From Nitrospirota bacterium (GTDB lineage: Bacteria > Nitrospirota > Nitrospiria > Nitrospirales > Nitrospiraceae), in the NCBI GenBank assembly GCA_963701855.1, contig CAVPBK010000009.1:128001-192000 (forward strand): a stretch of 64,000 nucleotides of DNA, read 5' to 3'. Below the pieces are notes generated by a model. That model did no database searches and was not told the origin of the DNA. It was given only the letters and a program-made list of their open reading frames with translations. Position numbers and translations under genes: made by a program. This document shows, piece by piece, positions 3,486 to 44,423 of the stretch (the stretch's first letter is position 1; the number at the start of each line of letters is the position of its first letter).

Positions 3486-3528
3486 GACATCTCCGTATTG
3501 TTATAATATATATTAATCATTATCTTAA

Positions 3529-18353: not shown

Positions 18354-18728
18354 TTATGCGAGTTGCTGTACGCGTTCGGCCGCACTGATCACGTCGGTGA
18401 GGCGGATGCCGAATTTCTCATTCACCACGACGACTTCGCCCCGTGCCACCAGTTTATTGTTGACCAGTACTTCCATCGGTTCTCCCGCGAGCTTTTCAAG
18501 CTCGATTACCGATCCTTGCCCAAGCTGCAATAATTCTCTAATCACCATTTTTGCCGACCCGACCTGCACGGTCACCTGCATCGGAATGTCGAGGATAAAG
18601 TCTATATTCTTGGGCGCAGCGGCCACGGCTCCTCCGTCAAGCGATGGAAATGAGGCCGGAGCCACTGGAACAGAGGGCGCAGAGGTGGATGTCTTCGCTC
18701 CTGAATTTGCTACTTCATTGTCGGCCAT
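18354..18728 (-). CDS. fliN: Flagellar motor switch protein FliN
   Basis: Motifs IDFILDIPMQVTVQVG, LLQLGQGSVIELEKLAGEP and GEVVVVNEKFGIR. Confidence 0.98.
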   Translation of the reverse strand: MADNEVANSGAKTSTSAPSVPVAPASFPSLDGGAVAAAPKNIDFILDIPMQVTVQVGSAKMVIRELLQLGQGSVIELEKLAGEPMEVLVNNKLVARGEVVVVNEKFGIRLTDVISAAERVQQLA

Positions 18729-18757: not shown

Positions 18758-19732
18758 TCACGCGATCACTTTTTCAATTCGACAAGCCTGGTTTCCCTTC
18801 GAGATGCCAGGGCTCCCTTGAAACTTCAAGTATCCTTCAATGAAACAATCGAGCGGATCACCAGGCCGTTGGTCTAACAGGATGAGATCTCCCGGAACGA
18901 AGTCCAACACGTCTCGCACCTTGACCGAGGCCGTTCCAAGTCGAATCGTCACAGCAAGCGGACACTCTTGTAATTTTTCATGAAACCTTGTTGCCCAACT
19001 TCCATCTTGCTCGACTTGATCCGAGACAATGCCCGAATAGAGTTTCTCCTTAATTGGCTCGAGCATCGAATAGGGATACACAAGAAAGAAGTCGCTGGTG
19101 GTCTCTCCAAATTGAACTTGGAGGGTAGTCACAAAGACGATTTCTGATGCGGTGACTACCATGGCAAACTGAGGATTGACTTCTGAACGGACCAGTACTG
19201 TTTTGACAGTGAGTGCGGCGCGCCAAGCTTTCTCCATCTCCTCAAACGCCACCTGCACGAGCTTCTTGATGATCCGTAGCTGAATCGGCGTGAAATCGCG
19301 GCCTTCTGGCTTGACATGTGTTTGCGCCTTCCCTCCGTAGAAATAGTCCACAATCAGGTAGACCAGAAACGCATTGACGACAAACAGACCATTCCCCCGC
19401 AGCGGGTCCATGCGAAACACGTTCAGCGAGGAGGGAATCGGAACGGTTTTCATGAACGCGCCGAACTTCATGATTTGCGTCCCGATAATATTAAACTCCA
19501 CCTTCGTATTCAGCAGCGCACTCCAGGACAAAGACAGGTGCCGTGTAAATCGGTCGGTAATCAGCTCGAGCGTCGGCATGCGCCCGCGAACAATACGTTC
19601 CTGATTGAAGAGGTCGTACTGCTTGACCCCGCCGGCTGCTTGCCCCTCTTCCTCTGCTTTGGTCTCTACCTCCCCGGAGACAACCCCTTTCAACAACGCA
19701 TCGATTTCGTCTTGTGAGAGTATTTTTTCCAT
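18758..19732 (-). CDS. fliM: Flagellar motor switch protein FliM
   Basis: N-terminal CheY-binding peptide MEKILSQDEIDALL, plus EGRDFT and a SpoA-like C-terminus. Confidence 0.97.
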   Translation of the reverse strand: MEKILSQDEIDALLKGVVSGEVETKAEEEGQAAGGVKQYDLFNQERIVRGRMPTLELITDRFTRHLSLSWSALLNTKVEFNIIGTQIMKFGAFMKTVPIPSSLNVFRMDPLRGNGLFVVNAFLVYLIVDYFYGGKAQTHVKPEGRDFTPIQLRIIKKLVQVAFEEMEKAWRAALTVKTVLVRSEVNPQFAMVVTASEIVFVTTLQVQFGETTSDFFLVYPYSMLEPIKEKLYSGIVSDQVEQDGSWATRFHEKLQECPLAVTIRLGTASVKVRDVLDFVPGDLILLDQRPGDPLDCFIEGYLKFQGSPGISKGNQACRIEKVIA

Positions 19733-19751
19733 CGTAATAAGCTGGTTCTGT

Positions 19752-20297
19752 TTATTGCACGACGAAGTCCGTGAAGTAGGCTGCGCGCACGCCAGGCTTG
19801 GGAAGAAGACTGTTAACTCGTTGGGTAATCTCATCGCGCAGCTGAAATTTACCCTGAGGAGTTCGGATCGATGCCGCATCCTTACTGGTCAGCAGCACAA
19901 GTATCGTGTCGCGCAACTGCGGGATGCGGCTGGTGAGTTCGGCCGAGGTATCCTGACTCTCGAGTTCCAATTTCACCGTCAGTTTCAGATAGCGCACCTC
20001 CGGCGTATCCGCTAAGTTGACAATGAAGGGGTCAACGTCGTAGATCGCGCCAGGAGCATTGGCTTTCGGAGCGTCATGTTTCGTTTCTACCTCCACATGC
20101 CCTGCCGCCTTCGCGGTCGTCGCCTCTACTTTCTGCTCGTCTCCCCCATGCCCTCCAGCCATAAACTTAAAGAGCGCGAACGCCCCTCCAAGGCCAAGCA
20201 CGAGTGTCCCCGCGACAATGATGATGACCATTTTCAGTGGAATCCCCGCCGCAACTGGCGCCGGTGCCGGCGGGGGCGTGCTTTCTGTCTCTGCCAT
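19752..20297 (-). CDS. fliL: Flagellar basal body-associated protein FliL
   Basis: Single transmembrane helix, then PFIVNLAD...RYLK, P.LRD.I..LL and YFTDFVVQ. Confidence 0.96.
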   Translation of the reverse strand: MAETESTPPPAPAPVAAGIPLKMVIIIVAGTLVLGLGGAFALFKFMAGGHGGDEQKVEATTAKAAGHVEVETKHDAPKANAPGAIYDVDPFIVNLADTPEVRYLKLTVKLELESQDTSAELTSRIPQLRDTILVLLTSKDAASIRTPQGKFQLRDEITQRVNSLLPKPGVRAAYFTDFVVQ

Positions 20298-24206: not shown

Positions 24207-24980
24207 TCAATGTCGAGCAGGCTCCTGAGGAGCTGTAACAAATTCTTCAGTCAATTTCGCTGCACGATCGGCTTTCACCTGTGCCAGAATAGCCCCTGCC
24301 GATTTACTCTTAAGGAGGCGAAGAATTTCCAGCGCTTTCCGATCTGTCATTCGCTCGATTCGCGCAGCAGCCTCCTCTGCAGGCATACTTTCATACATCT
24401 TTACCAGCTGCCCCAACTGCAGCGTGCGTTTGTCAGCCGCTTGTTTGCCGCGTGAAGCTTGTGCACCCCCGACAGCTTTTTCCTGTTCGAGGCGACGCTT
24501 TTCTATCGCTTCGATTTTGCTCAATATCTGCTCAACTTCAGCTTTTAGAATCGCTACCTGCCCCTCTGCCGCCCGAACCGCTTTCTCTCGATGCTCCAAA
24601 TCCTGCTTCCGCTGCTGAAACAAGGCAACTATTTCCTCCGGCACAGTGAGCGCTGGTCCTTGGAGTGGTTCTGCTATCGGCGCGGGTAATTCGCCTCCTG
24701 ATTCCTTGATCTGATCAGCCGATACCGACACCGGCGAAACATCTTCGGCGTGAGCCGAAACAGGCATTCCCATCGAAAACCGCTGCGGCTCCAGACCCTG
24801 CCCCGCCGAAACCTGGACGAGTTGAATCATCGTCCAGATCAACGCGCTCATGACACAAACTCTGGCACCGGCTGCCCACAACCGGCCGCTCCACGCAGGG
24901 CGCTCAAACCGGTTTGTTTTGTATATCTGGTTTGTCTGGTTCATGTGGTTGATCTGGTTTCTCCGGTCGGTCTGGTTCAA
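24207..24980 (-). CDS. MotE/FlbB-like flagellar protein (coiled coil plus MgtE-N-like domain); start uncertain
   Basis: Motif LVKMYESMPAEEAAARIERM....A.EIL..LK.K.AGAILA. Usual position after fliJ. Confidence 0.8.
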   Translation of the reverse strand: MNQTDRRNQINHMNQTNQIYKTNRFERPAWSGRLWAAGARVCVMSALIWTMIQLVQVSAGQGLEPQRFSMGMPVSAHAEDVSPVSVSADQIKESGGELPAPIAEPLQGPALTVPEEIVALFQQRKQDLEHREKAVRAAEGQVAILKAEVEQILSKIEAIEKRRLEQEKAVGGAQASRGKQAADKRTLQLGQLVKMYESMPAEEAAARIERMTDRKALEILRLLKSKSAGAILAQVKADRAAKLTEEFVTAPQEPARH

Positions 24981-25016: not shown

Positions 25017-25439
25017 TCAGAGCACAGTCGTGCGACGTGCCGCCTCATCCATTTCCAGTTGATCGATTCTGTGTTGTACAAGATGCTGTTGCAGCCGCAT
25101 GCGTTCAGCCAGACGATCGAGTGTGCGGCGATCTTGCATGGCTTCGCGTAATTCATCCTGTTTTTGACTCCATGTCCTATTAAGTCTCACCTCCTCCTGG
25201 CGAGCTTGCGCCAATAAGGATGTCCCGGCCTGAAAGCGGGACTGCCACACCAGAAATTCATCCAGCGCCAGTTCTCCGCCGGCCTTGAGCAGGTATGCAT
25301 CTGTCGTAAGCCTCATATGCTCATCAAGCAGACGCGATCGCGTTTCTGCATCCTGAAGCTCCTGACGCAGTTGGAAAAGATCCATCCGCGCGACCTCTTC
25401 CACCTGGGCCCGATAGCGTCTCAACACATCGAGTTTCAT
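25017..25439 (-). CDS. fliJ: Flagellar export chaperone FliJ
   Basis: 140-aa coiled coil directly after fliI, with MKLD.LRRYR...EE and DQLEMDE.A. Confidence 0.85.
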   Translation of the reverse strand: MKLDVLRRYRAQVEEVARMDLFQLRQELQDAETRSRLLDEHMRLTTDAYLLKAGGELALDEFLVWQSRFQAGTSLLAQARQEEVRLNRTWSQKQDELREAMQDRRTLDRLAERMRLQQHLVQHRIDQLEMDEAARRTTVL

Positions 25440-26743
25440 GCTGTCGCCTTCACCAGGGTGAGTAATTCTTGGATCGAGGCGCCAATCGAGACGGATTGCT
25501 CGATATCCTGTCGAAGAAAGGCATTCATGCTATCTTGAGCCGCCACGGCTTTGTCGAGATCGCGATTGGTGCCCGCCTTATACGCGCCAAGCAGGATGAG
25601 ATCCTCAGATTGCTGATACCGTGCCTGAAGCTCGATCATGGACCGGACTGCCGCATAGTGATCACGCCCCACGATGTCTTTCATCACCCGGCTGGTACTA
25701 TTTAAGAGGTCAATCGCCGGAAAATGGTTGCGCGCGGCCAACTGCCTCGAGAGCACAATGTGGCCGTCTAGAATCGACCGGACCGTTTCTGCGATGGGGT
25801 CGGAGAGTTCATCACTCTCCATGAGAACCGTATAGAGCCCAGTGATAGCGCCGGAACCGGGACCGGTCCCGACTCGTTCCAGAAGCTTGGGCAACATCGT
25901 AAAGACGGAAGGGGTATATCCCTTTGTAGTCGGCGGTTCCCCGATGGCGAGTCCGACTTCTCGTTGACTATGGGCCAGGCGGGTGAGTGAATCCATCATC
26001 AGGAGAACCTGCCTGCCACAGTCGCGGAAATACTCTGCAATCGTCGTCGCAATCAACGCGCCTCGTAATCGCACTAACGGTGGCTGGTCCGATGTCGCCA
26101 CGATTACCACCGAGCGGTTGAGCGCTTCAGGAGTCAAATCGCGCTCCAGAAATTCATTGACTTCTCGTCCACGCTCGCCAATGAGGGCGATGACATTCAC
26201 GTCGGCCTTCGTGTAGCGGCTGATCATCCCGAGCAACACACTTTTCCCGACACCGGAACTGGCAAAGATGCCTACCTTCTGACCACGGCCACACGTGAGG
26301 CAGGCGTTGATCGCTCGGATCCCCAGATCAAGCGGTTCTACGATACGCGTTCTCTTCAGGGGATTGATCGGCGCAGCATGCAAGGGATATCGGTCTTCGG
26401 TCTCGAGGGGACCGCGCCCATCTAACGGCTCGCCAAGCCCGTTTAGCACCCGTCCTAGCAGCTGTTGGCCGACCGGAACCGAAGCACAGTGGCCTTTCAA
26501 GAGCAGCCGGCTGTCAGGGCCGATCCCGCGCATCTCACCGAGCGGCATCAGCAACACACGATCGCCGCGAAACCCCACCACCTCGGCCGGCACCGTTCCC
26601 TCTCCATCCTCGCGCGTGACATCGCACAGCTCCCCGACCGATGTCATGGGACCATAGCCTTCAATCACAATCCCAACGGCCTGCGCCACACGGCCCGAGA
26701 CCGCAAGAGGGTCTGCCTGTTCAATAAGGTCGACGAGATTCAC
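25436..26743 (-). CDS. fliI: Flagellar export ATPase
   Basis: Motifs ASSGVGKS, IGERGREV, DSLTR, GEPP..KGY.PSVF and RSILDGHIVLSR. Start placed at the GTG at 26743. Confidence 0.98.
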   Translation of the reverse strand: MNLVDLIEQADPLAVSGRVAQAVGIVIEGYGPMTSVGELCDVTREDGEGTVPAEVVGFRGDRVLLMPLGEMRGIGPDSRLLLKGHCASVPVGQQLLGRVLNGLGEPLDGRGPLETEDRYPLHAAPINPLKRTRIVEPLDLGIRAINACLTCGRGQKVGIFASSGVGKSVLLGMISRYTKADVNVIALIGERGREVNEFLERDLTPEALNRSVVIVATSDQPPLVRLRGALIATTIAEYFRDCGRQVLLMMDSLTRLAHSQREVGLAIGEPPTTKGYTPSVFTMLPKLLERVGTGPGSGAITGLYTVLMESDELSDPIAETVRSILDGHIVLSRQLAARNHFPAIDLLNSTSRVMKDIVGRDHYAAVRSMIELQARYQQSEDLILLGAYKAGTNRDLDKAVAAQDSMNAFLRQDIEQSVSIGASIQELLTLVKATA

Positions 26744-27779
26744 GGCGGCCTCGTTTCTGTAAAGTCTCTCCAAGTCGCAGCAACTGCTGGTCCAGTGAGG
26801 CATCAACCAGTCGATTCGTTGATTGCACGACACAGCTTCCGCGCGAGAGAGACGAATCGCCTTCGATATGCATTGTAAAAGCCGGTGGCCGATCGCGGCA
26901 CAACTCTACACGAGCCGCCTCCAGGACGGGGGCGTCGGACGGATGCGTTCGCACAGTGACGATACCCGCCTCGCGAACCGTCGCTAAGGCCGACTTCAGC
27001 AATGCAGTCACGGCATCCTGTCGTTCGATAATTGTATCGCGCAGAATGCGCGTCGCCAGGCTGAAGGCCAGCGCCGTCACGTCATCTTCGACGGTCTGAT
27101 GCAGCGATGCCCGTGTGTCATCAAGGCGACGAACTGCGTCGGCCAAGAGCATCTGCTCCTGTTGTCTGGTAGCCACGACTCGCGCGTCTGCTCGTCGTTC
27201 ACCCTCTGCAATACCTTGATCGTAGTCCGAAAGACCCTGGTCGCCGACAAATCGATCGCCGGTGCCGAAATCCGTCAACGCTAAACTGCGGCAGCGAATG
27301 CCTGAGGCACGAATCACCGCCTGCTTAAGAACTGTATTCTCTGAGCGCAGGTGATACAGGTCGAGGAGGCGATTCACGGTCAGCTGCAGTGCCTCGGTTT
27401 CGAATGGCTTCATCAGAAACTCCGCCGCTCCTGCCTTCATCGCCTGAACCGCGAGATCCACGGTGCCATATCCGGTCATTACCAGCCCCATCAGGCGGTG
27501 ATCAAGCTCACAGGCCTGCTGGAGCAGCGCGATACCGTCTTGGTCCGGCAATTTGACGTCGGTGATCAGAAGCGAGACGGGAGACTCTTTTAATGCCGCA
27601 TAGGCTTCCCGTGCGGACCCAACCGCGCGCACACGATGCCCTGCCTGTTGCAGCAGCTTCATTAAGAGTTCTCGAATCGCCTCCTCATCGTCGACGACTA
27701 AGATTGAACTATTTCGTCGCCCGTTTGAGCTGAGGGATGGCTGGGTGAGTATCGACTGACCGTTCGCAGCCCGTTCCAT
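26721..27779 (-). CDS. fliH: FliH with an N-terminal response-regulator receiver domain
   Basis: N-terminal half has ILVVDDE, LITD, MTGYG and KPF (complete receiver). C-terminal half has QGIAEG, VRTHPSD and D.SL.RG.C.VQS....VDAS...QL (FliH). Lies between fliG and fliI. Confidence 0.88.
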   Translation of the reverse strand: MERAANGQSILTQPSLSSNGRRNSSILVVDDEEAIRELLMKLLQQAGHRVRAVGSAREAYAALKESPVSLLITDVKLPDQDGIALLQQACELDHRLMGLVMTGYGTVDLAVQAMKAGAAEFLMKPFETEALQLTVNRLLDLYHLRSENTVLKQAVIRASGIRCRSLALTDFGTGDRFVGDQGLSDYDQGIAEGERRADARVVATRQQEQMLLADAVRRLDDTRASLHQTVEDDVTALAFSLATRILRDTIIERQDAVTALLKSALATVREAGIVTVRTHPSDAPVLEAARVELCRDRPPAFTMHIEGDSSLSRGSCVVQSTNRLVDASLDQQLLRLGETLQKRGRRESRRPY

Positions 27780-28778
27780 TTACAACATCGCCTCCTCTCC
27801 ACCAGCGCCGGCGATGACAATGCGCCCTTCCTCTTCAAGTTTCCGGCAAACTTTGAGTATATTCTGCTGCGCCTTCTCAACATCCGACACCTTCATCGGT
27901 CCCCTTGCCTCCATGTCGTCTTTCAGCATCTCCGACGCCCGGCTCGACATGTTTTTCAGAAACTTCTCCTTGGTTTCCGGACTCGCTCCACGCAACGCCA
28001 CAGGAAGATCCTCTTTACTGACCTCTTTCAGCAACTCTTGCATGCCACGGTCATCGAGCTTAATCAGATCGTCGAAGACGAACATCAACTCTCGGATCGT
28101 ATCGGCCAATTGCGGATTGCGTTCGGCGATTTTCGACATGATGCCCCCCTCCGTGGCTTTGTCGAGGGTCGTAAGAATATCGGCGATCGATTCAGCACCT
28201 CCGACACTTGTCGCACGAGTGCCGGCACTCGCGATGAGTGAACTCTGCAACGCGTCGCTGAGTTCCTCGAGCACGCTCGGCTGCAAGGTCTCCATTGTGG
28301 CAAGGCGCAAGGCCACATCCACGCGGAGGGCTTCGGGCAAGTCGACCATGACGACGCCGGCCTGATCCGGATCCATATGCGCAAGGATCACGGAGATTGT
28401 CTGGGGATGCTCAGTTTTGATCATCTGTGAAACGGTTTTTGCATCGACCCATTTCATCGCATCGAGCCCCGGATACACCTTGCTGGTCATGGACTCAAGC
28501 ATACGATTTGCTTTTTCAGGGCCAAGTGCCTTGGACAGAATGGTTTTAATGTAGTCACTTCCATGAAACGTCACGTCACCACTTGCACTTGCCTTCTCAA
28601 ATTCATCGATAACGATCGATTCCTCTTCCCTGGTGATATTCGCCGTCGTATTCATAAACGCACCCAATCGACGAATCTCCTTAGGATCAAGGTTCTTCAT
28701 CACCGACGCAGCGGCGTCCTCCCCGATCGCTTTCAGGAGAATGGCTGCCTTTTGCTCGCCGCTGAGTTGCGTGGCCAT
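27780..28778 (-). CDS. fliG: Flagellar motor switch protein FliG
   Basis: Motifs G.QKAAILL, EHPQTI..ILAH, MFVFDD, NMS.RA and DVEKAQQ.I. Confidence 0.98.
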   Translation of the reverse strand: MATQLSGEQKAAILLKAIGEDAAASVMKNLDPKEIRRLGAFMNTTANITREEESIVIDEFEKASASGDVTFHGSDYIKTILSKALGPEKANRMLESMTSKVYPGLDAMKWVDAKTVSQMIKTEHPQTISVILAHMDPDQAGVVMVDLPEALRVDVALRLATMETLQPSVLEELSDALQSSLIASAGTRATSVGGAESIADILTTLDKATEGGIMSKIAERNPQLADTIRELMFVFDDLIKLDDRGMQELLKEVSKEDLPVALRGASPETKEKFLKNMSSRASEMLKDDMEARGPMKVSDVEKAQQNILKVCRKLEEEGRIVIAGAGGEEAML

Positions 28779-28794
28779 CGCTACATGTGCCTCA

Positions 28795-30351
28795 CTAGCT
28801 GGTCTTCAACCATTGCTTGACGACCAGCGCCGTGTTATCAGGATTGCCTCGAGCCATGTCGACGATCTGTGAGCGGGGCTTTCCCGTCAAGGATGCTTCG
28901 ACCTGGCTGACCGAAGCGGGAAGCGGCGGCGTAGAGCCTTCAGCCGATGACCCAGCCGTCCCCAGCATTGCCATCAAGGGACGCACCACCATGAAGAGGA
29001 TCAGGAGAAAGAGGCCTCCTCCAACCCCGTATCGAATGTAGGGGGTGAAGGAACTGGCCGTCTCTGCCGCAGCCTCAACACCTTGCCCAGAAGGCTCTTC
29101 CGTTGCAATGTCGAATTGTACGTTGGTGACCTGTACTTGATCCTGCCGCTCTGCCGAATAACCCATGGCTTTTTTGACGATCTCTTCGATGCGCTTCATG
29201 TCTTCTTCCGGTCGCGCCGTATACTTCTTCGCCGTATCGCTTGCGGCCTTCCCTGCTTCGGACGGCGCAGCCGTTTCGTAGATGCCGTCCACCAGCACCG
29301 CTACGGAAAGTTGCTTGATGCTTCCGCTGGACTCCACGACTCGGGAAACCGTCCGGCTGATTTCGTAATTCACGGTTTCGTTCTTCGTCTGATTGTTGTT
29401 CGAACTCGTTTGAACCGGCTCCTGGCCTGCCCCCTCCGGGAGATTCGATTGGACGCCAGGTACGCCACCAGATGATACACCGTTGACCCCATTGGCCTTT
29501 TCCTGGCCGCGCTGTTCACTCCGAACGACTTGACTGTTCGGATCGTACCGCTCTTCCGTTGTTTCCACTTTGCGGAAGTCGAGAATGCTGGATACCCGCA
29601 CCACGGCTTTATTTGCTCCGACGATTCGTTCCAACATTGTTTGAATGCGCGTCTCGATATCCTTTTCAACCGTCCGCTGGTATTCCAGCTGCGACCCGGT
29701 GAGCCCCGTGGCGTCGTCGCCCCCAGCTGCCGATGAAAGGAGCCGTCCATGCCCATCCACCACGGTGACATCTTTGACTTGCAGGCCCTCGACGCTGCTC
29801 GATACGAGGTGAACGATCCCATTCACTTGTGTCTTGGCAAGCGCTTGTCCATTCCGCAATGACAGGACGACCGAGGCTCGCGCCCTATTCTCATCGTTGG
29901 AAAACAATCGCCGTTCCGGTGTGGCGAGATGGACGCGGGCTCGCTCTATCTCCGGCATTTGCGCAATGGTCCGTGCCAGCTCTCCTTGTAACGCACGACG
30001 ATAATTGAGTTTTTGGACAAAATCGGACATGCCGATCGATGATCGATCGAAAATTTCAAAACCTACTCCGCCCCCATGAGGAAGCCCCTGGGTGGCCAAC
30101 TGCAATCGCATCTCATGGACTTGGGCACTGGGAACAAGAATGGTGTTGCCGCCGCCGGTCGTCTCATACGGCACTTTCGTCTCTTTCAGTTTATCCACAA
30201 TCCCTGCCGCATCCTCCGGATTGAGATTTGTGAACAGGACCTGCATATCGGGTTGTTGCGTCCACAGGGCGATAGCGATGAGACCAGCAATAGAGCCTGC
30301 AAGCGCAACCAGAACGATCATGCGTTGATTGATGGAAAACTTAGACAGCAT
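28795..30351 (-). CDS. fliF: Flagellar MS-ring protein
   Basis: Two transmembrane helices, with GFEIFD, NY.RALQGELARTI, ARVHL and NYEIS. Confidence 0.98.
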   Translation of the reverse strand: MLSKFSINQRMIVLVALAGSIAGLIAIALWTQQPDMQVLFTNLNPEDAAGIVDKLKETKVPYETTGGGNTILVPSAQVHEMRLQLATQGLPHGGGVGFEIFDRSSIGMSDFVQKLNYRRALQGELARTIAQMPEIERARVHLATPERRLFSNDENRARASVVLSLRNGQALAKTQVNGIVHLVSSSVEGLQVKDVTVVDGHGRLLSSAAGGDDATGLTGSQLEYQRTVEKDIETRIQTMLERIVGANKAVVRVSSILDFRKVETTEERYDPNSQVVRSEQRGQEKANGVNGVSSGGVPGVQSNLPEGAGQEPVQTSSNNNQTKNETVNYEISRTVSRVVESSGSIKQLSVAVLVDGIYETAAPSEAGKAASDTAKKYTARPEEDMKRIEEIVKKAMGYSAERQDQVQVTNVQFDIATEEPSGQGVEAAAETASSFTPYIRYGVGGGLFLLILFMVVRPLMAMLGTAGSSAEGSTPPLPASVSQVEASLTGKPRSQIVDMARGNPDNTALVVKQWLKTS

Positions 30352-32063: not shown

Positions 32064-33470
32064 TTACGCCGAGTCCTGACAGCTTGTCCCTCGATATTCT
32101 CGAAGCTTGTTCCTCAAGGTCCGAATGCTGATTCCAAGTTCTTTCGCCGCATGGGTGCGATTCTCCCTCACGCGTGTGAGGGTTTGAAAAATCAGTTCCC
32201 GCTCCATTTCCCACAGAGAGCCGTTTCCTGAAGGCTGGGGCACGGATGGAACTGGCGCAGGAGACACCGGTTGTCCGCCGGACTCCATCAACAAGTGGCC
32301 GGGAAGAATTGCCTCGTTTCCAGCTAAAAGCACAGCGCGTTCCATGACATTTTCTAATTCACGCACATTCCCTTTCCATCGTCTGTCCTGGAGCATCTCA
32401 TAGGCCTCCACCGACACCGCCGGAAGCGGAAAGCTATTGCGCGCCGCGGAGACCGCCACAAAATGTCTCGCGAGCAACGGAATGTCAGCGGGCCGATCCC
32501 GCAATGGAGGGACTGTGATGGGGAACACATTCAATCGGTAATACAAGTCTTCCCGAAACCGTCCCTGCTCCACTTCGTGATAGAGCGATCGGTTTGTTGT
32601 CGCAATGACTCGAATATTCACGGATACGGGCTCCCGGCCTCCGACTCGATCCACTTCCCGCTCCTGAATTACACGGAGCAACTTGGCCTGCAGACCCATG
32701 TTCATTTCACTGATTTCATCCAGCAGCAAGGTGCCGGTATGCGCCATCTCAAACTTGCCGATTTTCTTCATGATGGCTCCGGTAAATGCTCCGCGCTCAT
32801 GACCAAACAGTTCGCTCTCCAGGAGTCCATCCGGTAATGCCGCGCAATTGACGGCGACAAATGGGCGATGCGCACGAGGGCTTCTGTTATGGATAAAGCG
32901 GGCCAGCAATTCTTTCCCTGTGCCGCTTTCTCCATTAATAAGGATAGTTGCTTGGCTTGCGGCGACCCCCTCCACGGTACTGAGCAAACGGGCCATGCCC
33001 GGGTCTTGTGTCAGGATTGACCGCTGGTCGATCGGCGCAGGCGATGTCGCTGAGGCATCAGTCCCCCGCGCTTTCAGATTAGCGATCACTCGCTCGAATA
33101 AATCGGTTGAGAACGGTTTGAGAATGTAATCGCTCGCCCCGTACTTCATTGCCTCCACGGCGGTCTCCACCGTCCCGTAGGCGGTCATCAGGACCATCAA
33201 CGTGTGTGGTGAGCGATGCTTGATCTCTTTGATCAGGTCGAGGCCACCAAGACGCGGCATCTTCAGATCGGTCACCACCAACCAGGGTTTATAACGACTG
33301 ACCCGTTCGACGGCATCGGCGCCATCGATCGCCCCCTGCACGTCATACCCCAGACGACGAACTGACTCCATTAAGGCGGTCCGCATGGATGGATCGTCAT
33401 CGACGATCAAAATTCGCGCGGCCTGCGCGGAAATATCCGTCGCAGGGCCTGCTGTATCGTGTTCACTCAT
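32064..33470 (-). CDS. Sigma54-dependent response regulator (FlrC/FleR-like)
   Basis: Receiver domain, AAA+ domain (GESGTGKE, GAFTGA, FREDLYYRLNV) and Fis-type HTH (LGISIRTLRNKL). Coupled to the upstream kinase. Confidence 0.93.
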   Translation of the reverse strand: MSEHDTAGPATDISAQAARILIVDDDPSMRTALMESVRRLGYDVQGAIDGADAVERVSRYKPWLVVTDLKMPRLGGLDLIKEIKHRSPHTLMVLMTAYGTVETAVEAMKYGASDYILKPFSTDLFERVIANLKARGTDASATSPAPIDQRSILTQDPGMARLLSTVEGVAASQATILINGESGTGKELLARFIHNRSPRAHRPFVAVNCAALPDGLLESELFGHERGAFTGAIMKKIGKFEMAHTGTLLLDEISEMNMGLQAKLLRVIQEREVDRVGGREPVSVNIRVIATTNRSLYHEVEQGRFREDLYYRLNVFPITVPPLRDRPADIPLLARHFVAVSAARNSFPLPAVSVEAYEMLQDRRWKGNVRELENVMERAVLLAGNEAILPGHLLMESGGQPVSPAPVPSVPQPSGNGSLWEMERELIFQTLTRVRENRTHAAKELGISIRTLRNKLREYRGTSCQDSA

Positions 33471-34771
33471 GCGGAGGTCTCCTCTTCAATGCAGTGCCGC
33501 TCGCCGAGCATGACAGCGACACCAGACCCGTCTCCGCGATCAGGATCAGACGACTGTGGCGGCTCGACACGGTCCGCCTCGCGACGATGTGGAAGCACGA
33601 TCCTAAATGTCGTCCCGCGCCCCTCAACACTCTCCACGTCGATCCGGCCCCGATGCGCTTCGACAATCGCATGGACGATGGCCAACCCTAACCCGGTACC
33701 CTCGTCCCTCGTGGTAAAAAATGGATCAAAAATCCTCGGCTGCTCAGCCGCGGGAATGCCCACGCCGGTATCTGAGACCGAGAGACACAGCGCCGGCCCG
33801 CTGGAAGTCTGTGTCGTTGTTATGGTCGCCGACAGTGACAGCGTTCCACTCTCGGGCATGGCATGGATGCTGTTCAGAACCATGTTCAGAAGTACTTGCT
33901 TCATTTGCCCCGCATCGCACCAGATGTGAGATGCCAGAGGATCAACGTTCAGACGAATGTCGATTCTGGTATTTGCCACGGCATGGGCGGCGAGCGTCAA
34001 CGCATCAAGCATGAGAGCTTCCGTCTCATGCCACTCCCCATGGGAACAATCTGGCTTGGTATAGAGCAGCAGATTGGTCAGAAGACGATTCATCATGTGA
34101 ACAGACGACGAAATATGCTCGGCGTATTTTCGTAATGCCGGGGCGCCACTCAGATCACGGTGCAGCATCGACGCAAACAGCTCAATGCTGCCGAGTGGAT
34201 TCCGAATTTCGTGGGCAATCCGCCCGATCATTTCACCCATGGCTACAAGCCGATTGCGGCGCTGCAGCCGATCCTCCAATTCTCGTACCGCCGTGACATC
34301 TTGAATCAATAGCACACTCCCGGCATGACACCCCTCGCTGGTCTGCAAGGCACGTTGGGAGAGCGCGACGGCTGCACCCTGTTGCGTCGTCAAGGGATAA
34401 ACGTCGTCATCCAGCTGCGCGTCCTTCAGACAAGCGGCTAACGAACGACCGACAATCTGTTCGCGCGACAGTCCAAGAAGTTGCTCGCCGGCCTGATTAC
34501 AACGTGTGATCGTCCCGTCTGCATCCATCACGAGTAAGCCCGTCGAAAGGGACTCCACAATCGCCGTCAGGTGCTCCCGCAACTCTTCATTGGCGCGCAG
34601 ATTCCGGCCGAGCGCCTCGTTACGGTCGGCCAGTTCGACATCAAGCTGCTCCAGCCTGGACGTCAACGTCTGATAGGACTGTTGCAACGTCGCCGCCGCT
34701 TCGTCGAAACTGCGAAACGCATCGTGCAATAAATCGCTTTCCGTGGTCGCCGAGGCAGGATGTACGTTCAT
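33467..34771 (-). CDS. PAS-domain cytoplasmic histidine kinase (FlrB/FleS-like)
   Basis: N-terminal F..F..A...LQ.SY..L coiled coil, PAS domain, IAHEIRNPL, DTGVGI, FDPFFTT and GTGLGL. Confidence 0.93.
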   Translation of the reverse strand: MNVHPASATTESDLLHDAFRSFDEAAATLQQSYQTLTSRLEQLDVELADRNEALGRNLRANEELREHLTAIVESLSTGLLVMDADGTITRCNQAGEQLLGLSREQIVGRSLAACLKDAQLDDDVYPLTTQQGAAVALSQRALQTSEGCHAGSVLLIQDVTAVRELEDRLQRRNRLVAMGEMIGRIAHEIRNPLGSIELFASMLHRDLSGAPALRKYAEHISSSVHMMNRLLTNLLLYTKPDCSHGEWHETEALMLDALTLAAHAVANTRIDIRLNVDPLASHIWCDAGQMKQVLLNMVLNSIHAMPESGTLSLSATITTTQTSSGPALCLSVSDTGVGIPAAEQPRIFDPFFTTRDEGTGLGLAIVHAIVEAHRGRIDVESVEGRGTTFRIVLPHRREADRVEPPQSSDPDRGDGSGVAVMLGERHCIEEETSA

Positions 34772-34775
34772 TACA

Positions 34776-36932
34776 TCATTCTCCTTCCTTCGCCATGGCC
34801 GCTTGGAGGCCTATCTGCATCGCTTCCGCTGCACGATGGAGCAGTGGATCGTCGAACTCTGCGTCCGGCCCCACGATTCCAGGCCGGCTTCCTTGATAGT
34901 TCGTGGCCTCAGGATTCAGTATGATCTGCACCCGGGCCCATTCGGCCTCTACAGGATTAGCTCCGGCCTTCAGCGCCTGCCGGTAGAGATCCATGGCACG
35001 TTCGGGTTTATTCAGTTGCAAGAGCAGATCGGCATACAACAGAAAATCCTGCGGCGCCCGGAGCGCGTTGTTTCGCAATGCATCCTCGAATGCTGCGGCG
35101 GCTTCCACTTGCTTCTGGTCTTCTGCAAGCGTCCGCGCCAGCGTCGCGTAGATCCAACCTCGCGCCGCATCACGCGGTTGAGACCGCGTCCAGTGCCGCA
35201 TGAGCCGGATGGCGCTCTGGCGATCCCCTTGCTCCAGCATGGCCGTCGTCAATTGGCGTGAGACCAGCATAGACCGCTCGCTCCTCGGATGCTGAAGGCG
35301 AAAACTTTCGAATACGCTCCGAGCTGCCGCAGGATCGAGCTGGTCCAGATAACTTTCGCCAAGACCAAGAAGCGCCTCTTCGTGAAGTGTCGCCGCCTTC
35401 CGATTCTTTACCAACATTTGATACAGGTGTACCGCTTCGGTAGAGAAGCCCAGCCGACGATGCGTATCGGCCACCTCCAATAATGTCCGCGTCCCTATGT
35501 AGTGCTGCTCTGGAGCTTGCCCGTGACTGTGAAATAATGTGAGCGCTTGGACGTCCTGCTTGCTCTTGAGTGCCGCTTCCAACTGGGGTTTCAAGAGAGA
35601 GGTTAGATGGAGACCGGCAGTCTGGGGCCACGGATCCTGTGGAGCCACACCGTTCCGCCGAGTGACAGCTTGATAGACCTCGATGGCACGCGACATATCA
35701 CCGCGCAATTCGTAGGACTCCGCCAAATGAAAGAGTGCCTCGCTACCGACCATATCGTTCGGGTGTTCGAGGGCGATGGCCTTATGGAGCGCCTCGCCTT
35801 CTGATACATCCAGGTAGGAACTATCGCTCCCTCGAATCATGCCTTCCACTTTTCTCCGCAAGAAATCCTCTCCTGCCGAAGCCGCAATTTCCTGTTCCCT
35901 CCGTGACAGTCGCATGCGAGCAACAACCGCTGCCGCCGTATCTGCATACTGCGTCTGGGCGGTAGTGTAAAAATTCTCTGCCTGAGTGCGTAGACCGAGC
36001 CTGCTGTGACTGTCTCCAAGGCGGACAAGAGCGGTACTCGCGTGCCGGTGCGAAGGAAAGAGGTTGTACAGGAGCAAATCGATCTCGCACGCTCTTTTCA
36101 GCTCCTGAACTTCAAAGAGGGCATCGCCATATTGCTGCAACCCATCAGCATTTTTCTTCAGGAGATTCGGCCAGCGCCGATACAGAATATCGTACAGTAG
36201 CACTGCATCCCGCTTGCGCCCCTGGATGTAGAGCGCGTTGGCCTGATCAAATGTCGCCCTCACGACAAGACGCTCCTCCGTCGAACGATGTCTCACTGCT
36301 TCAAAGGCCCGTTCCGCTTCTGTCCATCGCCCCAACTCCCCAAGTGTGGTCCCCAACGCGAGCATGGATCGGTCCGCATCGAAACGAGGCAGCTCGCGGG
36401 ATAGAGCATATTCATAGGCGACAAAGGCTTCCTGGAACCATCCCATTTCGGCATACAGGTCACCCACCCGCCAGAATGCACGGAACGCATTGGCATTCTT
36501 CGGATACGCCCCGATAATGCTGCGATATTGCGCAATCGCCTCTCTCCGGCCATGGTCGGTCGGGTTCTCGAGCAGGGTGAGTTCGGCCAAGAAGGCCTTC
36601 AACGGCGGGATCAACCCACGCGCGGAGTCGAGTCTGGCGAGCGCGTCAAAGCCCGCGCGGGCGACGTTATACTGCTTGCGGGCAAGCGCCTCAACCGCCT
36701 CTAGAAATTGTGCGGACTCCGGCCCCTCCACCGTTCGCGCATAGCGGGGACCGTCATCGGGCAGCGCAATTCGTGACGAAGGAGTCGCCACTCCCCCTTG
36801 AGGAGACGTCGCGTGGGTGGGTAATGGAGTGACCGGCGACTCTCGCGGCTCCGTTGCAGCTGCATCTTGAAGTGCAAGACACTGCGCAAGCACACACACG
36901 ATCAACCAATTGCAAGATGTACTCATACTCAT
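34776..36932 (-). CDS. Exported tetratricopeptide-repeat protein
   Basis: Signal-peptide-like N-terminus (WLIVCVLAQCLALQDAAA) and many TPR-like helical pairs. Start placed downstream of the sigma54 site. Confidence 0.82.
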   Translation of the reverse strand: MSMSTSCNWLIVCVLAQCLALQDAAATEPRESPVTPLPTHATSPQGGVATPSSRIALPDDGPRYARTVEGPESAQFLEAVEALARKQYNVARAGFDALARLDSARGLIPPLKAFLAELTLLENPTDHGRREAIAQYRSIIGAYPKNANAFRAFWRVGDLYAEMGWFQEAFVAYEYALSRELPRFDADRSMLALGTTLGELGRWTEAERAFEAVRHRSTEERLVVRATFDQANALYIQGRKRDAVLLYDILYRRWPNLLKKNADGLQQYGDALFEVQELKRACEIDLLLYNLFPSHRHASTALVRLGDSHSRLGLRTQAENFYTTAQTQYADTAAAVVARMRLSRREQEIAASAGEDFLRRKVEGMIRGSDSSYLDVSEGEALHKAIALEHPNDMVGSEALFHLAESYELRGDMSRAIEVYQAVTRRNGVAPQDPWPQTAGLHLTSLLKPQLEAALKSKQDVQALTLFHSHGQAPEQHYIGTRTLLEVADTHRRLGFSTEAVHLYQMLVKNRKAATLHEEALLGLGESYLDQLDPAAARSVFESFRLQHPRSERSMLVSRQLTTAMLEQGDRQSAIRLMRHWTRSQPRDAARGWIYATLARTLAEDQKQVEAAAAFEDALRNNALRAPQDFLLYADLLLQLNKPERAMDLYRQALKAGANPVEAEWARVQIILNPEATNYQGSRPGIVGPDAEFDDPLLHRAAEAMQIGLQAAMAKEGE

Positions 36933-36948
36933 AGACACGTCGAAGTTC

Positions 36949-36964
36949 AGCAATTTCTGTGCCC
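36949..36964 (-). promoter_or_regulatory. Sigma54 promoter for the TPR-kinase-regulator operon
   Basis: Minus strand GGGCACAGAAATTGCT (GG-N10-GC). Confidence 0.65.
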
Positions 36965-37068
36965 TTGTCGTTTCGCAACTAAATACCTGCTCTGCGAGCA
37001 AACTTGCCGTCATTCGAGTGATGATTCGACGAAACATGTCAAGCGTCCGTCGCCTCGCTCATGCGTTC

Positions 37069-37298: not shown

Positions 37299-38717
37299 TT
37301 AGAAAGCGGGACAACCCTGAGCCTTCGAAGCAAAGCCTTTCCGCTTCATCTTCTCAACGAGCGTGGTACGGTTGACATGGAGTAGCTGAGCCGCCTTGCT
37401 CGTAATTCCGTTGGCCTGTCGAAGCGCGCCAACGATGAGACGGTTCTCGAACTGCTCAAGCTCTCGTGACAGGTTGACCCCCTGATCGCTGAAGCCGATG
37501 AAGTGCGACGCAGTCTGTTCCGCGGTTACCGAAGAGCATAGGAGACGCTCCGGAAGATCAGCGACTTCGATAATCCCTGATCGACTCAACACCGCAAGGC
37601 GCTCGATCATGTTCTCCAACTCCCGAATATTCCCAGGCCAGTGATGTTCCATTAAACGGGCCATGGCATCAGGGGAACAGACTGCCATCGCAGTCTGTTT
37701 GCCGCAGTTCAATCTCTCCAAGAAATGATTCACCAATAATGGGATATCGCTTCGCCGTTCTCTCAGCGGTGGAATTGTGACAGGGATGACATTCAGGCGA
37801 TAATACAGATCTTCCCGAAAACGCTTCTGCTGCACGGCCACTTCCAGATCCTGATTGGTAGCCGCAACAACGCGAACATCCACGTCGATCGTTTTCGTGC
37901 CTCCCACACGCTCGAACGACCGTTCTTGCAGAACCCGAAGCAGCTTCACTTGTAACCCGAGGCTCAACTCACCGATTTCGTCGAGAAATATTGTCCCGCC
38001 ATGCGCCGACTCGAAGCGGCCTATTCGTGTATGCGCTGCGCCGGTAAACGCTCCCTTCTCATGTCCAAACAACTCAGATTCGAGCAGATTCTCGGGAATA
38101 GCGCCGCAATTGACCGGGATGAGCGGGCGATCTTTGCGCACACTGTTAAAGTGCAGCATCCTCGCGATCAGTTCCTTGCCGGTTCCACTCTCTCCTTGAA
38201 TTAAAACGGTGCTATTGCAGTCCGCAACCTTCTCGACAAACTCAAGTACGCGCCGAATCGGTTCACTCGTACCGACAAACTGCTCTAACCGATATTGCTC
38301 ACGGACGGCTCTCCGCGAAAACTGCATGTTCCTGCGTCGGTCACATGCTTCCAATGCCTTCTTAATTGAGTCAACGACGGACTCGTTGTCAAATGGTTTT
38401 GTCAGGAATTCAAATGCTCCAGCCTTCATGGCCTTCACGGCACAGTCAATTGAGCCGTAACCGGTCATCACAATCCCGATCACCTTGGGATCAATCTGGA
38501 GGATGCGCTCCAAGACGACCAGGCCATCCATATCAGGCAGCTTCAAGTCCGTCATCAACACATGAACAGGGATCTCCCGGGCCACACGAATAGCCTCCTG
38601 TCCGCTTCCAACAAGCGTCACTTGACGCCCTTCCTGCGACAACAGTCTTCGAAGCAGTCTCTGCAGGCCGTCATCGTCCTCGACCACAAGAATAGACAAC
38701 ACACTCATGCTGTGCAC
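37299..38717 (-). CDS. Sigma54 activator, probable flagellar master regulator (FlrA/FleQ-like) with an intact receiver
   Basis: Receiver (VVEDD, MTD, KPF), AAA+ (GESGTGKE, NCGAIP..LLESELFGHEKGAFTGA) and HTH NRTTLVEKMKR as in FleQ/FlrA. Heads the cluster. Confidence 0.88.
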   Translation of the reverse strand: MHSMSVLSILVVEDDDGLQRLLRRLLSQEGRQVTLVGSGQEAIRVAREIPVHVLMTDLKLPDMDGLVVLERILQIDPKVIGIVMTGYGSIDCAVKAMKAGAFEFLTKPFDNESVVDSIKKALEACDRRRNMQFSRRAVREQYRLEQFVGTSEPIRRVLEFVEKVADCNSTVLIQGESGTGKELIARMLHFNSVRKDRPLIPVNCGAIPENLLESELFGHEKGAFTGAAHTRIGRFESAHGGTIFLDEIGELSLGLQVKLLRVLQERSFERVGGTKTIDVDVRVVAATNQDLEVAVQQKRFREDLYYRLNVIPVTIPPLRERRSDIPLLVNHFLERLNCGKQTAMAVCSPDAMARLMEHHWPGNIRELENMIERLAVLSRSGIIEVADLPERLLCSSVTAEQTASHFIGFSDQGVNLSRELEQFENRLIVGALRQANGITSKAAQLLHVNRTTLVEKMKRKGFASKAQGCPAF

Positions 38718-39774: not shown

Positions 39775-40237
39775 GCTAGGCTTACCCAAATGCTTCTTCT
39801 TTAGTAGAGCTTACAGCGCACGGAGCACACCACTGGCCGCGCATATCTCTAATCAGAAAATTCAAATCATCTGCCATGTCATTGCTTAGGAAACTTAATC
39901 CTGTTTGCCACCTATGACAATACGTCTATTCGGCTCTACATTATGCAAACATGATCGCATTGATAGAATTTATATCTTCCATAAATGCTGACAGCGTATA
40001 TCCTACGTATATTCACCCTCTGTTGCACTCGCGCAGAAACGACAGAGCATCCCACAGCCTGTATTGATCATTTAATTCATTGGGTCTGTCTGGTTTTGGT
40101 TGAACGAAACTCATCAGATAGACCAGACGAACCAGACAGACGATTCCAGCGCGAGTTAAGGTTCCGAGACATTCTACCGACAAGGGCTTGTACTGACTTA
40201 TGGTGAACACTAATCAGCATTGAGGACCGCCAGAAGC

Positions 40238-41107
40238 ATGGACGCAGCAATAGGCGAATCTCGCAACGTGGGAATGCCGGAGCAAGTCGAGCAGGCCTTA
40301 ATCGAACGGATCGACAAGGATCGGATCGACCTCCCCGTGCTGCCACAAGTTGCTGGCCGGGTCATGGCTCTGGCGGGTGATCCATCGGCAGATGCGGCGC
40401 GTCTGTCCGCCCTCATTCACCAGGACCAGGCATTGGCAGCACATGTTCTGAGAGTAGCTAACTCGCCCGCCTATATGCCTCGGACTCCGATTGCCTCGCT
40501 CCAACATGCCGTCGCCATGCTTGGTGTGAATCAGCTGTCTGAAATCGCTGTCACAATTTCTCTGAAGAGTGGGGCCGTCAAGATTCCAGGACATGAAGCG
40601 GACATACGGCAGCTCTGGAGGCACGCGCTCGCCAGCGGGGCCTACGCAAAAGAGATCGCGCGCATGCGCCGGTTCAATGTGGAAAACGCTTACCTGTGCG
40701 GGCTTCTGCATGCGGTTGGGAAACCGGTCGTGCTTAAGGCCGTCATGACCATTGCCGCAGACATGCATATCTCCCTCGATCCCGGCGCCATAACCTCCTT
40801 CCTCGACAGCTATCATGCCCGCGTGGGCATCCAGATCGCCAGTGAATGGACCTTGCCCTCACAGGTGGCTGAGGTCATCGCCTATTACTGGGTCTACGAG
40901 CAAGCGCCCTCGCATAAACAGGAGGCGATGATGACCTGCCTGGCAGACCGGTTGGCGACCCATCTACTCGTTGCCGATTCCTTCGATGACAATACGCTTC
41001 GCGACCATAGTGTCTTTGCCGATCTCAATCTCTACCCCAACGATATTGATGCATTGCTCGGTCTCAAAGAGAAAATACTCAATCTCGTGGATACGATGGC
41101 ACAATGA
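40238..41107 (+). CDS. HDOD domain protein
   Basis: Motifs LPVLPQVA.RV, DQALAA.VLRVANSPAY, AV.MLG, WRHA and AYLCGLLH.VG. Confidence 0.93.
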   Translation: MDAAIGESRNVGMPEQVEQALIERIDKDRIDLPVLPQVAGRVMALAGDPSADAARLSALIHQDQALAAHVLRVANSPAYMPRTPIASLQHAVAMLGVNQLSEIAVTISLKSGAVKIPGHEADIRQLWRHALASGAYAKEIARMRRFNVENAYLCGLLHAVGKPVVLKAVMTIAADMHISLDPGAITSFLDSYHARVGIQIASEWTLPSQVAEVIAYYWVYEQAPSHKQEAMMTCLADRLATHLLVADSFDDNTLRDHSVFADLNLYPNDIDALLGLKEKILNLVDTMAQ

Positions 41108-43209: not shown

Positions 43210-44423
43210 TGACCGGCCCCCCTTAACCGGATCCGGCCCGTATGTTAGGGTCGGGCCGAAAGGAGGACCGTATGCCCCACAACCGTCACACCGTCGAGCA
43301 GATCATTACCAAGCTGCGTGAAGCCGAAGTGGCCCTAAGCAAAGGGCAGCCCTCGCACAGGCCTGCCGCACCCTGGGAATGACAGAACAGACCTACTATC
43401 GCTGGCGGAATGCCTACGGCGGACTCAAGATCGATCAAGCCAAGCGATTCAAAGAGCTGGAACGTGAGAACACGCGACTGAAACGCGCGGTCGCCGACCT
43501 CACCCTGGATAAGTTGATCTTGAAGGAAGCTGCCGAGGGAAACTTCTAAGCCCAGCGCGCCGCCGACAGACTGTGACGCACTGCTGCGACACGCTGGGCA
43601 TCCCGGAACGCCGGGCCTGTCGGGTGCTGGGATAACCGCGCTCGACGCAACGGTATCAGCCCGATCCTCCGGACGATGAGGTCTCGCTGACGACGGCGAT
43701 CATCCAGCTGGCGAGCCAATATGGGCGCTATGGGTATCGGCGGATCACCGCCTTGCTGCACCACGACGGTTGGCGCGTGAATCATAAACGCGTGGAGCGG
43801 ATCTGGCGACGGGAAGGACTCAAAGCGTCGCAGCGCCAACCGCCACGTCGGCGTCTCTGGTTGACCGATGGGTCCTGTATCCGGCTCCGCCTACAGCAGC
43901 CCAATCATGTCTGGGCCTACGACTTCGTGGCGCTACGGACGGAGGACGGCCGTCCGGTCACGCTGCTCACGATTGTGGATGAATACACGCGCAAGTGTCT
44001 GGCCATTGAGGTGGCCCGATGGCTACGCTCGGATGATGTCCTCTTCTGCTTGGCGGAGTTGTTTGTGCATCGCGGGGTGCCCACACATATTCGCAGCGAC
44101 AATGGCCCCGAAGTCGCAGCGAACGCCGTGCGACAGTGGCTCCAGCGCGTGGGGGTCCAACCGTTGTTCATTGAGCCCGGCAGCCCGTGGGAGAATGGCT
44201 ACGTCGAGAGTTTTAATGGAAAGCTACGCGATGACCTGTTGAATCGGGAACTGTTTGCTACACTATGGGAGGTGCAAGTGCTCGTGGAACGTTGGCGACG
44301 ACACTACAACCAGATTCGTCCCCATCGGGCCCTGGGGTTGCGGCCACCCGCTCCTGAAACGATTGCGCCCCAGCACTGTGCGTAAGTGCTATTCGACCTG
44401 GTACAACCACGGGGGGCCGGTCA
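43210..44423 (+). mobile_element. IS3-family element (IS407-like), inactivated
   Basis: Inverted repeats TGACCGGCCCCCC / GGGGGGCCGGTCA. orfA from 43272 is frameshifted near 43350. A G-GGA-AAC shift motif lies near 43537. orfB (W.YDF, DNG.E, NG..ESFNG) has an in-frame TAA near 43633. Confidence 0.93.

Follow-up and report, generated by a model that had tools for sequence, protein, structure and literature searches.

The window considered here, the whole stretch of 64,000 nucleotides (nt) that was analyzed, comes from a Nitrospirota bacterium (GenBank assembly GCA_963701855.1, contig CAVPBK010000009.1, positions 128,001 to 192,000), and it contains a flagellar gene cluster in which the gene for FliH carries a complete receiver (REC) domain at its front. 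Comparison with relatives shows that this REC–FliH fusion is real, ancient, and selected and that, as far as sequence can tell, REC keeps every residue needed for phosphorylation. On the phylogenetic evidence, the fusion arose in an ancestor inside the family Nitrospiraceae. The gene and its parts are given below, numbered as in the window (ORF, open reading frame; aa, amino acids; AF2, AlphaFold2; pLDDT, predicted local distance difference test).

26721..27779, minus strand: REC-fliH fusion gene (protein P0001), a single ORF of 352 aa with Pfam REC and FliH domains
27708..27779, minus strand: N-terminal tail, residues 1–24, poorly conserved and predicted disordered (pLDDT 35–37 over residues 1–21)
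27375..27707, minus strand: REC domain, residues 25–135, with D30, D31, D74, T102, and K124 (Pfam match, (beta-alpha)5 fold in AF2, conserved active-site residues)
27558..27560, minus strand: codon of the predicted phospho-acceptor Asp74 (motif LITD), Asp in 140/141 distinct full-length fusions, the exception being the degenerate REC of genome G136
27306..27374, minus strand: helix continuing alpha5, residues 136–158, including LRSENTVLKQAVIR, homologous to the REC-to-AAA+ linker of a sigma-54 activator
27228..27305, minus strand: flexible segment, residues 159–184, with the hydrophobic motif RSLALTDF (165–172) and pLDDT <50 over residues 161–181
26721..27227, minus strand: FliH proper, residues 185–352, with GxxxG at 189–193, a long helix at 185–267, and a globular C-terminal domain at 273–348

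The first-pass annotation, a model's reading of the sequence alone, had placed the gene correctly at 26721..27779. The gene is a minus-strand ORF of 352 aa; the plus-strand reading of 26721–27779 was rejected, its translation being full of stops. A GGAGG lies about 11 nt upstream of the ATG. In Pfam, Response_reg covers residues 26–135 (E 6.5e-25, 87.9 bits vs. a cut-off of 30.2) and FliH (PF02108) covers residues 207–334 (E 7.1e-16). P0001 is the sole PF02108 match in the 4.30-Mb genome (15 contigs, 97% complete) and sits between fliG and fliI in the flagellar cluster, as the genome's FliH. The motifs quoted in that annotation are all present, namely VVDDEE at residue 28, LITD (with D74), VMTGYG (with T102), and LMKPF (with K124), and so is the NtrC-type linker motif LRSENTVLKQAV, at about residues 144–155. 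The description of the GxxxG region as vestigial is fair, with one GxxxG left (G189 and G193, both invariant or nearly so in 42 fusions). The succession of REC, NtrC-type linker, and FliH is supported by the Pfam matches and by comparison of the linkers. P0001 has no Sigma54_activat or HTH_8 match in Pfam and shares only REC and linker with NtrC-family activators. Within the N-terminal tail (residues 1–24), no motif is kept across genera in the fusion alignments.

The first-pass proposal depended on the C-terminal half being FliH, and this half does match FliH profiles: the Pfam match scores 58.7 bits (cut-off 24.1), and a profile built from the C-terminal part and 22 relatives matches Salmonella FliH in the FliH2–FliI structure 5b0o (E 2.7e-12). 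The same profile gives faint matches to ATP synthase subunits b and delta, as expected for FliH. With the C-terminal 169 aa alone as query, no PDB sequence is matched at E up to 1 (phmmer). An AF2 model built from a 42-sequence alignment (mean pLDDT 80.2; predicted template modeling score, pTM, 0.41) presents a (beta-alpha)5 receiver at residues 25–127, with pLDDT of about 81–93 over REC. Helix alpha5 runs on as one helix over residues 128–158; after a low-confidence stretch (161–181) come an 80-residue helix (185–267) and the globular domain (273–348). The best Foldseek matches are the RECs of sigma-54 activators, NtrC1 (1zy2, 36% identity, and 1ny5), FleR (7w9h, 44%), NtrX, and DctD (1l5y), and the TM-score normalized to the target is 0.87–0.95 against solved receivers.

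The origin of REC can be traced within the same cluster, which contains two sigma-54 activators.

37299..38717, minus strand: sigma-54 activator with REC, AAA+, and helix-turn-helix (HTH) domains (Pfam), its REC at 38364–38693; the inferred donor of REC and linker
32064–33470, minus strand: second sigma-54 activator (Pfam), FlrC-like, the FleR-like partner of the kinase at 33467–34771, with which it forms a FleS/FleR-like pair

The genome has 106 REC matches, and 95 were compared (11 were left out as partial or below cut-off). As noted in the first pass, the FliH REC is closer to the REC of the activator at 37299–38717 (50.9% identity over 106 aa) than to that of the FlrC-like one (33.7% over 104 aa); the next-best RECs of the genome reach 39–40% (blastp). 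In a tree of the genome's receivers (44 RECs with blastp E below 1e-9), the FliH REC is sister to the REC of the activator at 37299–38717 with support of 99/96. A clear orthologue of this activator occurs in 10/10 genomes searched (five fused, five unfused), about 10 kb upstream of fliH. When the activator orthologues and the next-best paralogues are added (61 rows), 17 FliH RECs and 11 activator RECs form one clade (96/79) that excludes the 33 others. There, sister-family activators branch at the base (100/100), with the FliH RECs placed inside the activators of Nitrospiraceae (97/86). The best match within the genome, the sister position, and the nesting all support the earlier suggestion that REC was duplicated from the flagellar activator.

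The likeness extends into the helix that follows REC. At the position of the REC-to-AAA+ linker, the fusion has LRSENTVLKQAV and the activator RLKQENHLLRKAV; in activator orthologues, the linker reads RLKQENHLLRKAVR or RLKQENHLLRKAVRDQY, and the fusion counterpart is HLRSENTVLKQAVIRAS. Residues L144, E147, L151, and K152 of the linker are nearly invariant in 42 fusions. In tblastn searches from unfused genomes, the activator aligns to residues 17/23–155 of the fusion. Because the similarity runs past alpha5 and the tblastn alignments reach residue 155, the copied piece is read as REC plus linker. The title of master regulator, given to the donor in the first pass, goes beyond the evidence: the protein is a generic member of the NtrC family with an intact REC. 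No NCBIfam equivalog cut-off was reached by this activator, by the second one, or by the kinase at 33467–34771. Where the activator ranks in the flagellar cascade is deduced from its location and from a paper on FleQ and FleSR homologues of Nitrospira (PMC5767232). In the accessible part of that paper, FleQ and FleSR homologues and flagellar genes are named in Nitrospira, and FliH is not mentioned.

The best 120 matches in a search of 5.8 billion proteins all carry both Pfam domains, with 68–93% identity. Judged by the named sources of its close homologues, the genome belongs to Nitrospira. In an exhaustive search of 1.84 billion proteins, 12 of the best 150 matches span REC and FliH in one stretch; these are clusters at 50% identity, with 33–66% identity to the query. 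Nine of the 12 were looked up, and the four with source-named members are all from Nitrospira, Nitrospiraceae, or Nitrospirota. Nine short two-stretch matches from this search were rejected as REC–FliH proteins (they are double-REC proteins). The nearest ESM Atlas clusters with both domains are all from Nitrospirota. Independent and divergent fusions, as far as these searches reach, may occur outside Nitrospiraceae. A search of genome contigs with a REC-derived pattern returned 80 loci, five of them covering most or all of the query (one locus among the 80, L118, ends at residue 301, at its contig end); the remaining 75 are REC-only, mostly other response regulators, and say little about the range of the fusion.

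A FliH match is present in 200/401 genomes of the phylum scanned. Forty FliH loci were fetched, with 20 from Nitrospiraceae picked for genus spread and odd ORF lengths (so that the sampling was not random). The FliH ORF includes REC in 16/20 of these Nitrospiraceae loci, in 0/11 from two sister families of the order, in 0/7 from other orders of the class, and in 0/2 from other classes. Three REC-less genera of the family (G065, G285, and G307) have a short ordinary FliH. In G092 (L042, contig C3, ORF 3956–4603, minus strand), FliH has 215 aa, with the whole REC deleted in frame and fliG abutting; the protein starts just before the ILK motif and retains EPAILKHAAV onward. In a FliI tree of 41 loci (quick search, with support only from the Shimodaira–Hasegawa-like approximate likelihood ratio test, SH-aLRT), G065, G285, and G307 stand together at the base of the family (99), whereas G092 lies deep among fused relatives (98). 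Two changes are needed on this tree, a gain at the clade of 18 rows (SH-aLRT 81) and a nested loss (98). Since the unfused genera are basal and G092 is nested among the fused ones, we read this as one gain followed by one later loss.

There are two side observations on the family. In the REC tree, the FliH RECs group with the activator RECs of three genera (97/98) instead of branching outside all activators of the fused lineage, which conflicts with the FliI tree; the alignment has 110 columns only, and the grouping could be due to gene conversion, transfer, or a short-alignment artifact. A FliM match at E 1e-40 or better is found in 16/41 Nitrospiraceae genomes searched, sampled evenly across genera, and in 14/29 genomes that are ≥90% complete and ≤5% contaminated; many of the genera in the family seem to lack flagella.

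Among the 141 distinct full-length fusions, which are mostly close relatives so that the counts are weakened, D74 is kept in 140, K124 in 140, and T102 in 139. Residue D31 is kept in 135, and position 30 is mainly D (132) with E in eight. The 42-row alignment includes fusions down to 29% identity to the query. In six pairs with unsaturated synonymous divergence (dS) in both domains, and with the pair G083/G136 excluded, the ratio of nonsynonymous to synonymous substitution rates (dN/dS) is 0.07–0.20 for REC vs. 0.10–0.25 for the FliH part.

On what REC does in the fusion, the reading that we prefer, and to which we give about an even chance, is that a phospho-switch of the NtrC1/DctD kind would control the docking region of the FliH dimer and hence FliH2–FliI recruitment and export. 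The front of fliH received, in an ancestor, a copy of the 5′ portion of the sigma-54 activator gene from the same cluster, some 155 codons for REC and the helical linker. The cell still uses the product as its FliH, a dimeric stalk to which FliI binds and which anchors FliI at the C-ring and the export gate. In the model, alpha5 leads directly into the stretch where unfused FliH has its N-terminal docking peptide. NtrC1 and DctD are held inactive by a REC–linker dimer. By analogy with such activators, REC and linker would take one dimer arrangement when unphosphorylated and another once Asp74 is phosphorylated, and this switch would make the docking segments of the FliH dimer accessible, conceal them, or shift them. 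FliH2–FliI would then be recruited to FliM, FliN, and FlhA in response to a kinase signal, and flagellar export would follow that signal at the protein level, on top of transcriptional control. We put forward more tentatively a stronger form, in which REC and linker replaced the first docking anchor and docking of the export ATPase complex onto the C-ring or export gate became phosphorylation-dependent. As REC comes from the flagellar activator, one sensory kinase would then both switch on flagellar transcription and license export. If true, a type III secretion ATPase would here be subject to a hitherto undescribed kind of feed-forward checkpoint.

The expected docking partners of the FliH N-terminal region at the C-ring are both encoded in the cluster.

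18758–19879, minus strand: fliM (Pfam FliM/FliMN_C), expected docking partner
18354–18728, minus strand: fliN (Pfam FliM/FliMN_C), expected docking partner

According to the accessible part of the structural work on Salmonella, residues 1–18 of FliH dock on FliM–FliN via W7, W10, and L15 (PMC4443714), and the same N-terminal region contacts FlhA (PMC4443714 and, likewise from the part available, PMC9114704). In the phylum studied here, unfused FliH begins with a motif like [W/F]-S-K-I-I-K, followed about 10 residues later by +-S-Y-x-L-x-x-V. The second motif may be retained in the fusion as RSLALTDF (165–172), which aligns with +SYxLxxV at similar spacing, and this segment is a candidate remnant of the ancestral N-terminal docking peptide. 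A complex prediction with residues 140–190 of the fusion, FliM 290–373, and FliN 35–124 scores 0.58, whereas the best of three controls reaches 0.01; the runs share at least 84% of contacts, and the partner's pLDDT is 62 or more. In calibration, 116/157 solved complexes and 2/215 mismatched pairs reached the mark; those that did so at 0.60 or less were only 18/157 solved complexes and both of the passing mismatches. The pass may reflect likeness, because a similar FliM–FliN–FliH peptide complex has been solved (PMC4443714, seen in part).

Several points weigh against the phospho-switch reading, and they concern docking, the kinase, the variants of REC, and the FliH label itself. MAFFT places VLK of the fusion at the first docking motif, and the aromatic position is Glu in the fusions; the ENTVLK stretch is closer to ENxLLR of the activator linker than to the FliH peptide. 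Because of this Glu and of the better fit to the activator linker, the first docking anchor was probably replaced, as far as alignments of such short motifs can tell. Part of the ancestral peptide may thus be gone, and the docking mode may differ from the one proposed; the complex prediction is graded as weak support by the tool.

The only kinase of the cluster stands beside the other activator.

33467–34771, minus strand: PAS histidine kinase (Pfam), the only kinase in the cluster, overlapping the second activator

The same overlapping pair occurs in the same order in fused and unfused genomes, and a fused genome shares its gene order from activator to fliI with an unfused member of the family and with a genome of a sister family. 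Within the 19-kb regions compared, no kinase was gained with the fusion. Kinase specificity usually resides in the alpha1 helix of REC. The alpha1 helices of the FliH REC and of the activator REC differ within each genome, and their alignment gives no clear answer on specificity; because of this difference, a shared kinase is not indicated. The deletion in G092, nested among fused relatives, makes REC dispensable in at least one lineage. In G136 (L036, contig C1, ORF 3311–4417, plus strand; protein P0150), REC is a pseudo-receiver with D74, T102, and K124 replaced, and in the pair G083/G136, dN/dS is 0.41 for REC vs. 0.24 for the FliH part. The FliH part of G136 and the neighboring FliI stay conserved, and FliI is nearly identical in G083 and G136. 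Lastly, P0001 misses the NCBIfam equivalog cut-offs for FliH (NF004270, 51.9 vs. 180 bits; TIGR03825, 49.7 vs. 148.9 bits), and this is probably why the fusions bear the name "response regulator" at NCBI.

Some of these points suit a reading that we regard as unlikely, in which REC and linker are a structural add-on, an extra dimerization or docking module that would replace the lost part of the peptide with no role for phosphorylation. One lineage, G136, has a pseudo-receiver without D74, T102, and K124 and with its FliH part intact; REC is deleted in the G092 lineage; the aromatic anchor of the ancestral peptide is missing; and no kinase is found with the fusion in the 19-kb regions compared. 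A purely structural role, however, would not preserve Asp, Thr, and Lys as tightly as in 139–140 of the 141 fusions (mostly close relatives), and the REC dN/dS of 0.07–0.20 likewise speaks against it. Conserved active-site residues are also expected if the FliH REC served as a phosphate sink or assembly feedback, which we take to be rather improbable. It would compete for the phosphodonor of the activator, with the output on sigma-54 transcription and not on FliH, and activator phosphorylation would depend on how much FliH is present at the basal body or on where it sits there, coupling assembly of the export apparatus to transcription. The Campylobacter FlgSR system does sense export-apparatus assembly. 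The descent of the FliH REC from the activator REC, the activator orthologue about 10 kb upstream in 10/10 genomes examined, and the lack of a dedicated kinase accompanying the fusion in those 19-kb regions agree with a sink. Yet a sink needs neither a covalent join to FliH nor a linker helix, and the linker is conserved; moreover, the alpha1 helices differ between the two RECs of one genome.

Two further explanations bear on the gene product as such. An internal start could yield a second product, a FliH of the usual kind that lacks REC and serves export, and leave the full-length protein a minor regulatory role: the natural REC-less form of G092 starts just before the ILK motif, and the related SpaO family offers known cases of translation from internal starts (PMC4443714, from the part available). 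We consider this very improbable, because between KPF and the FliH domain no start codon with a Shine–Dalgarno-like motif is conserved in 13 fused genes (the best position has one in 3/13). It is hardly conceivable that an assembly or annotation artifact joined two genes, since there are 141 distinct uninterrupted fusions, many from long or complete contigs. The first-pass annotation would have given up its proposal had relatives displayed a stop or frameshift between the domains; none is seen, the frame being open in 16/16 fused loci, several on complete chromosomes. In addition, a public run contains a 750-base DNA contig, perhaps derived from the source sample, that matches the fliG stop, REC, and linker without a difference. 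In three metatranscriptome runs from two studies, short contigs with 90–99% identity lie over parts of fliI, fliH, and fliG; these RNA-library contigs, which derive from relatives and in part perhaps from DNA, cannot demonstrate transcription as one unit, and the uncovered bins are uninformative.

The window holds a complete flagellar cluster, with all genes on the minus strand (Pfam). Its composition, and the genes that flank REC-fliH, are as follows.

Minus strand, part 1 of the cluster: flgK, flgN, flgM, flgI, flgH, flgA, flgG, flgF
Minus strand, part 2: fliA, flhG, flhF, flhA, flhB, fliR, fliP, fliO, fliN, fliM, fliL
Minus strand, part 3: flgE, flgD, fliK, fliJ, fliI, REC-fliH, fliG, fliF, fliE, flgC, flgB
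Minus strand, part 4: sigma-54 activator overlapped by the PAS histidine kinase, TPR protein, second sigma-54 activator, LuxR-type response regulator
28795–30351, minus strand: fliF (Pfam)
27780..28778, minus strand: fliG (Pfam FliG_N/M/C), its stop directly adjoining the fliH ATG
25436..26743, minus strand (ORF open to 26833): fliI, the export ATPase (Pfam ATP-synt_ab, T3SS_ATPase_C)
25017–25439, minus strand: fliJ (Pfam)

The probable start of fliI is the GTG at 26743, with GAGG upstream, so that fliI would overlap the 3′ end of fliH by 23 nt; fliI orthologues align from ORF residues 25–41 onward. Between the activator and kinase genes, a TPR protein of 753 aa (34776–37037, minus strand) keeps its position across fused, unfused, and sister-family genomes, with 23–35% identity. 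An ORF between fliJ and fliK (24207–24980, minus strand) has weak similarity to MgtE_N and a sub-threshold match to the spirochete collar protein FlbB (NF047368, E 4.7e-6, 26.5 bits vs. a cut-off of 110). A GGDEF diguanylate cyclase gene (8617–9390, minus strand) lies inside the cluster, between the rod genes and fliA/flhG/flhF.

Just outside the cluster is a gene for an HDOD protein (40220–41107, plus strand). Farther on are an integrase-core (rve) ORF (43753–44385) and a phage-integrase fragment (48406–48768), with six Pfam-less ORFs between them; the segment 43753–48768, beside the flagellar cluster, may be what is left of a mobile element. A small ORF (58679–59140, plus strand) has a weak TIR/ThsB-like match (E 1.3e-5), which hints at a defense gene.

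With canonical FliH/SctL (Salmonella, 5b0o; PF02108), the fusion shares the C-terminal FliH domain, the long helix before it, one GxxxG, the gene order fliG–fliH–fliI–fliJ, and a single copy in the genome. It differs by some 160 extra N-terminal residues (REC and linker) and by the place of the docking-peptide region, which is at the N-terminus in Salmonella (W7/W10; PMC4443714, from the part available) but not in the fusion, where the aromatic position is Glu. With activators of the NtrC1/DctD/FleR type, it shares the homologous REC, the ENxxL[KR] linker, and an alpha5 that continues into the linker helix; unlike them, it has neither AAA+ nor HTH, and its output is a type III secretion stalk instead of a transcription ATPase.

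Phosphorylated CheY is a receiver that acts at the flagellar C-ring (FliM/FliN). In neither the 44- nor the 61-row tree is the FliH REC close to the CheY-like single-domain receivers of the genome; it is, unlike CheY, covalently attached, and it would affect assembly or export and not rotation. A signaling input directly on the flagellar export ATPase complex has likewise been proposed for c-di-GMP, in what is available of that report (PMC4591828); there, the second messenger is bound by FliI itself, whereas the input in the present case would be a phosphoryl group carried by a domain that is joined to FliH. A full-text literature search, with most subscription journals outside its reach, found no paper on a receiver–FliH fusion. 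Automatic annotations already display both domains. What is new is the definition of the donor gene, of the point of origin inside the family, of the gain and the loss, and of the natural REC-less and pseudo-receiver variants; so is the observation that Nitrospiraceae are not fixed for the fusion.

The fusion can be described as a response regulator with a new output or, equally, as a FliH that bears a regulatory head. In all flagellar and injectisome type III secretion systems, the ATPase is recruited and restrained by a conserved stalk, FliH/SctL. Descriptions of how flagellar assembly is controlled deal mostly with transcription and with secreted checkpoints. With a REC wired to FliH, a two-component signal would enter the export machine directly, and response regulators would have a new type of output. 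Natural controls are available in the basal REC-less Nitrospiraceae, in one REC-deleted relative, and in one pseudo-receiver. Members of Nitrospira are the main nitrite oxidizers and complete ammonia oxidizers in soils and water treatment, and the timing of flagellum building in Nitrospira bears on dispersal vs. aggregation.

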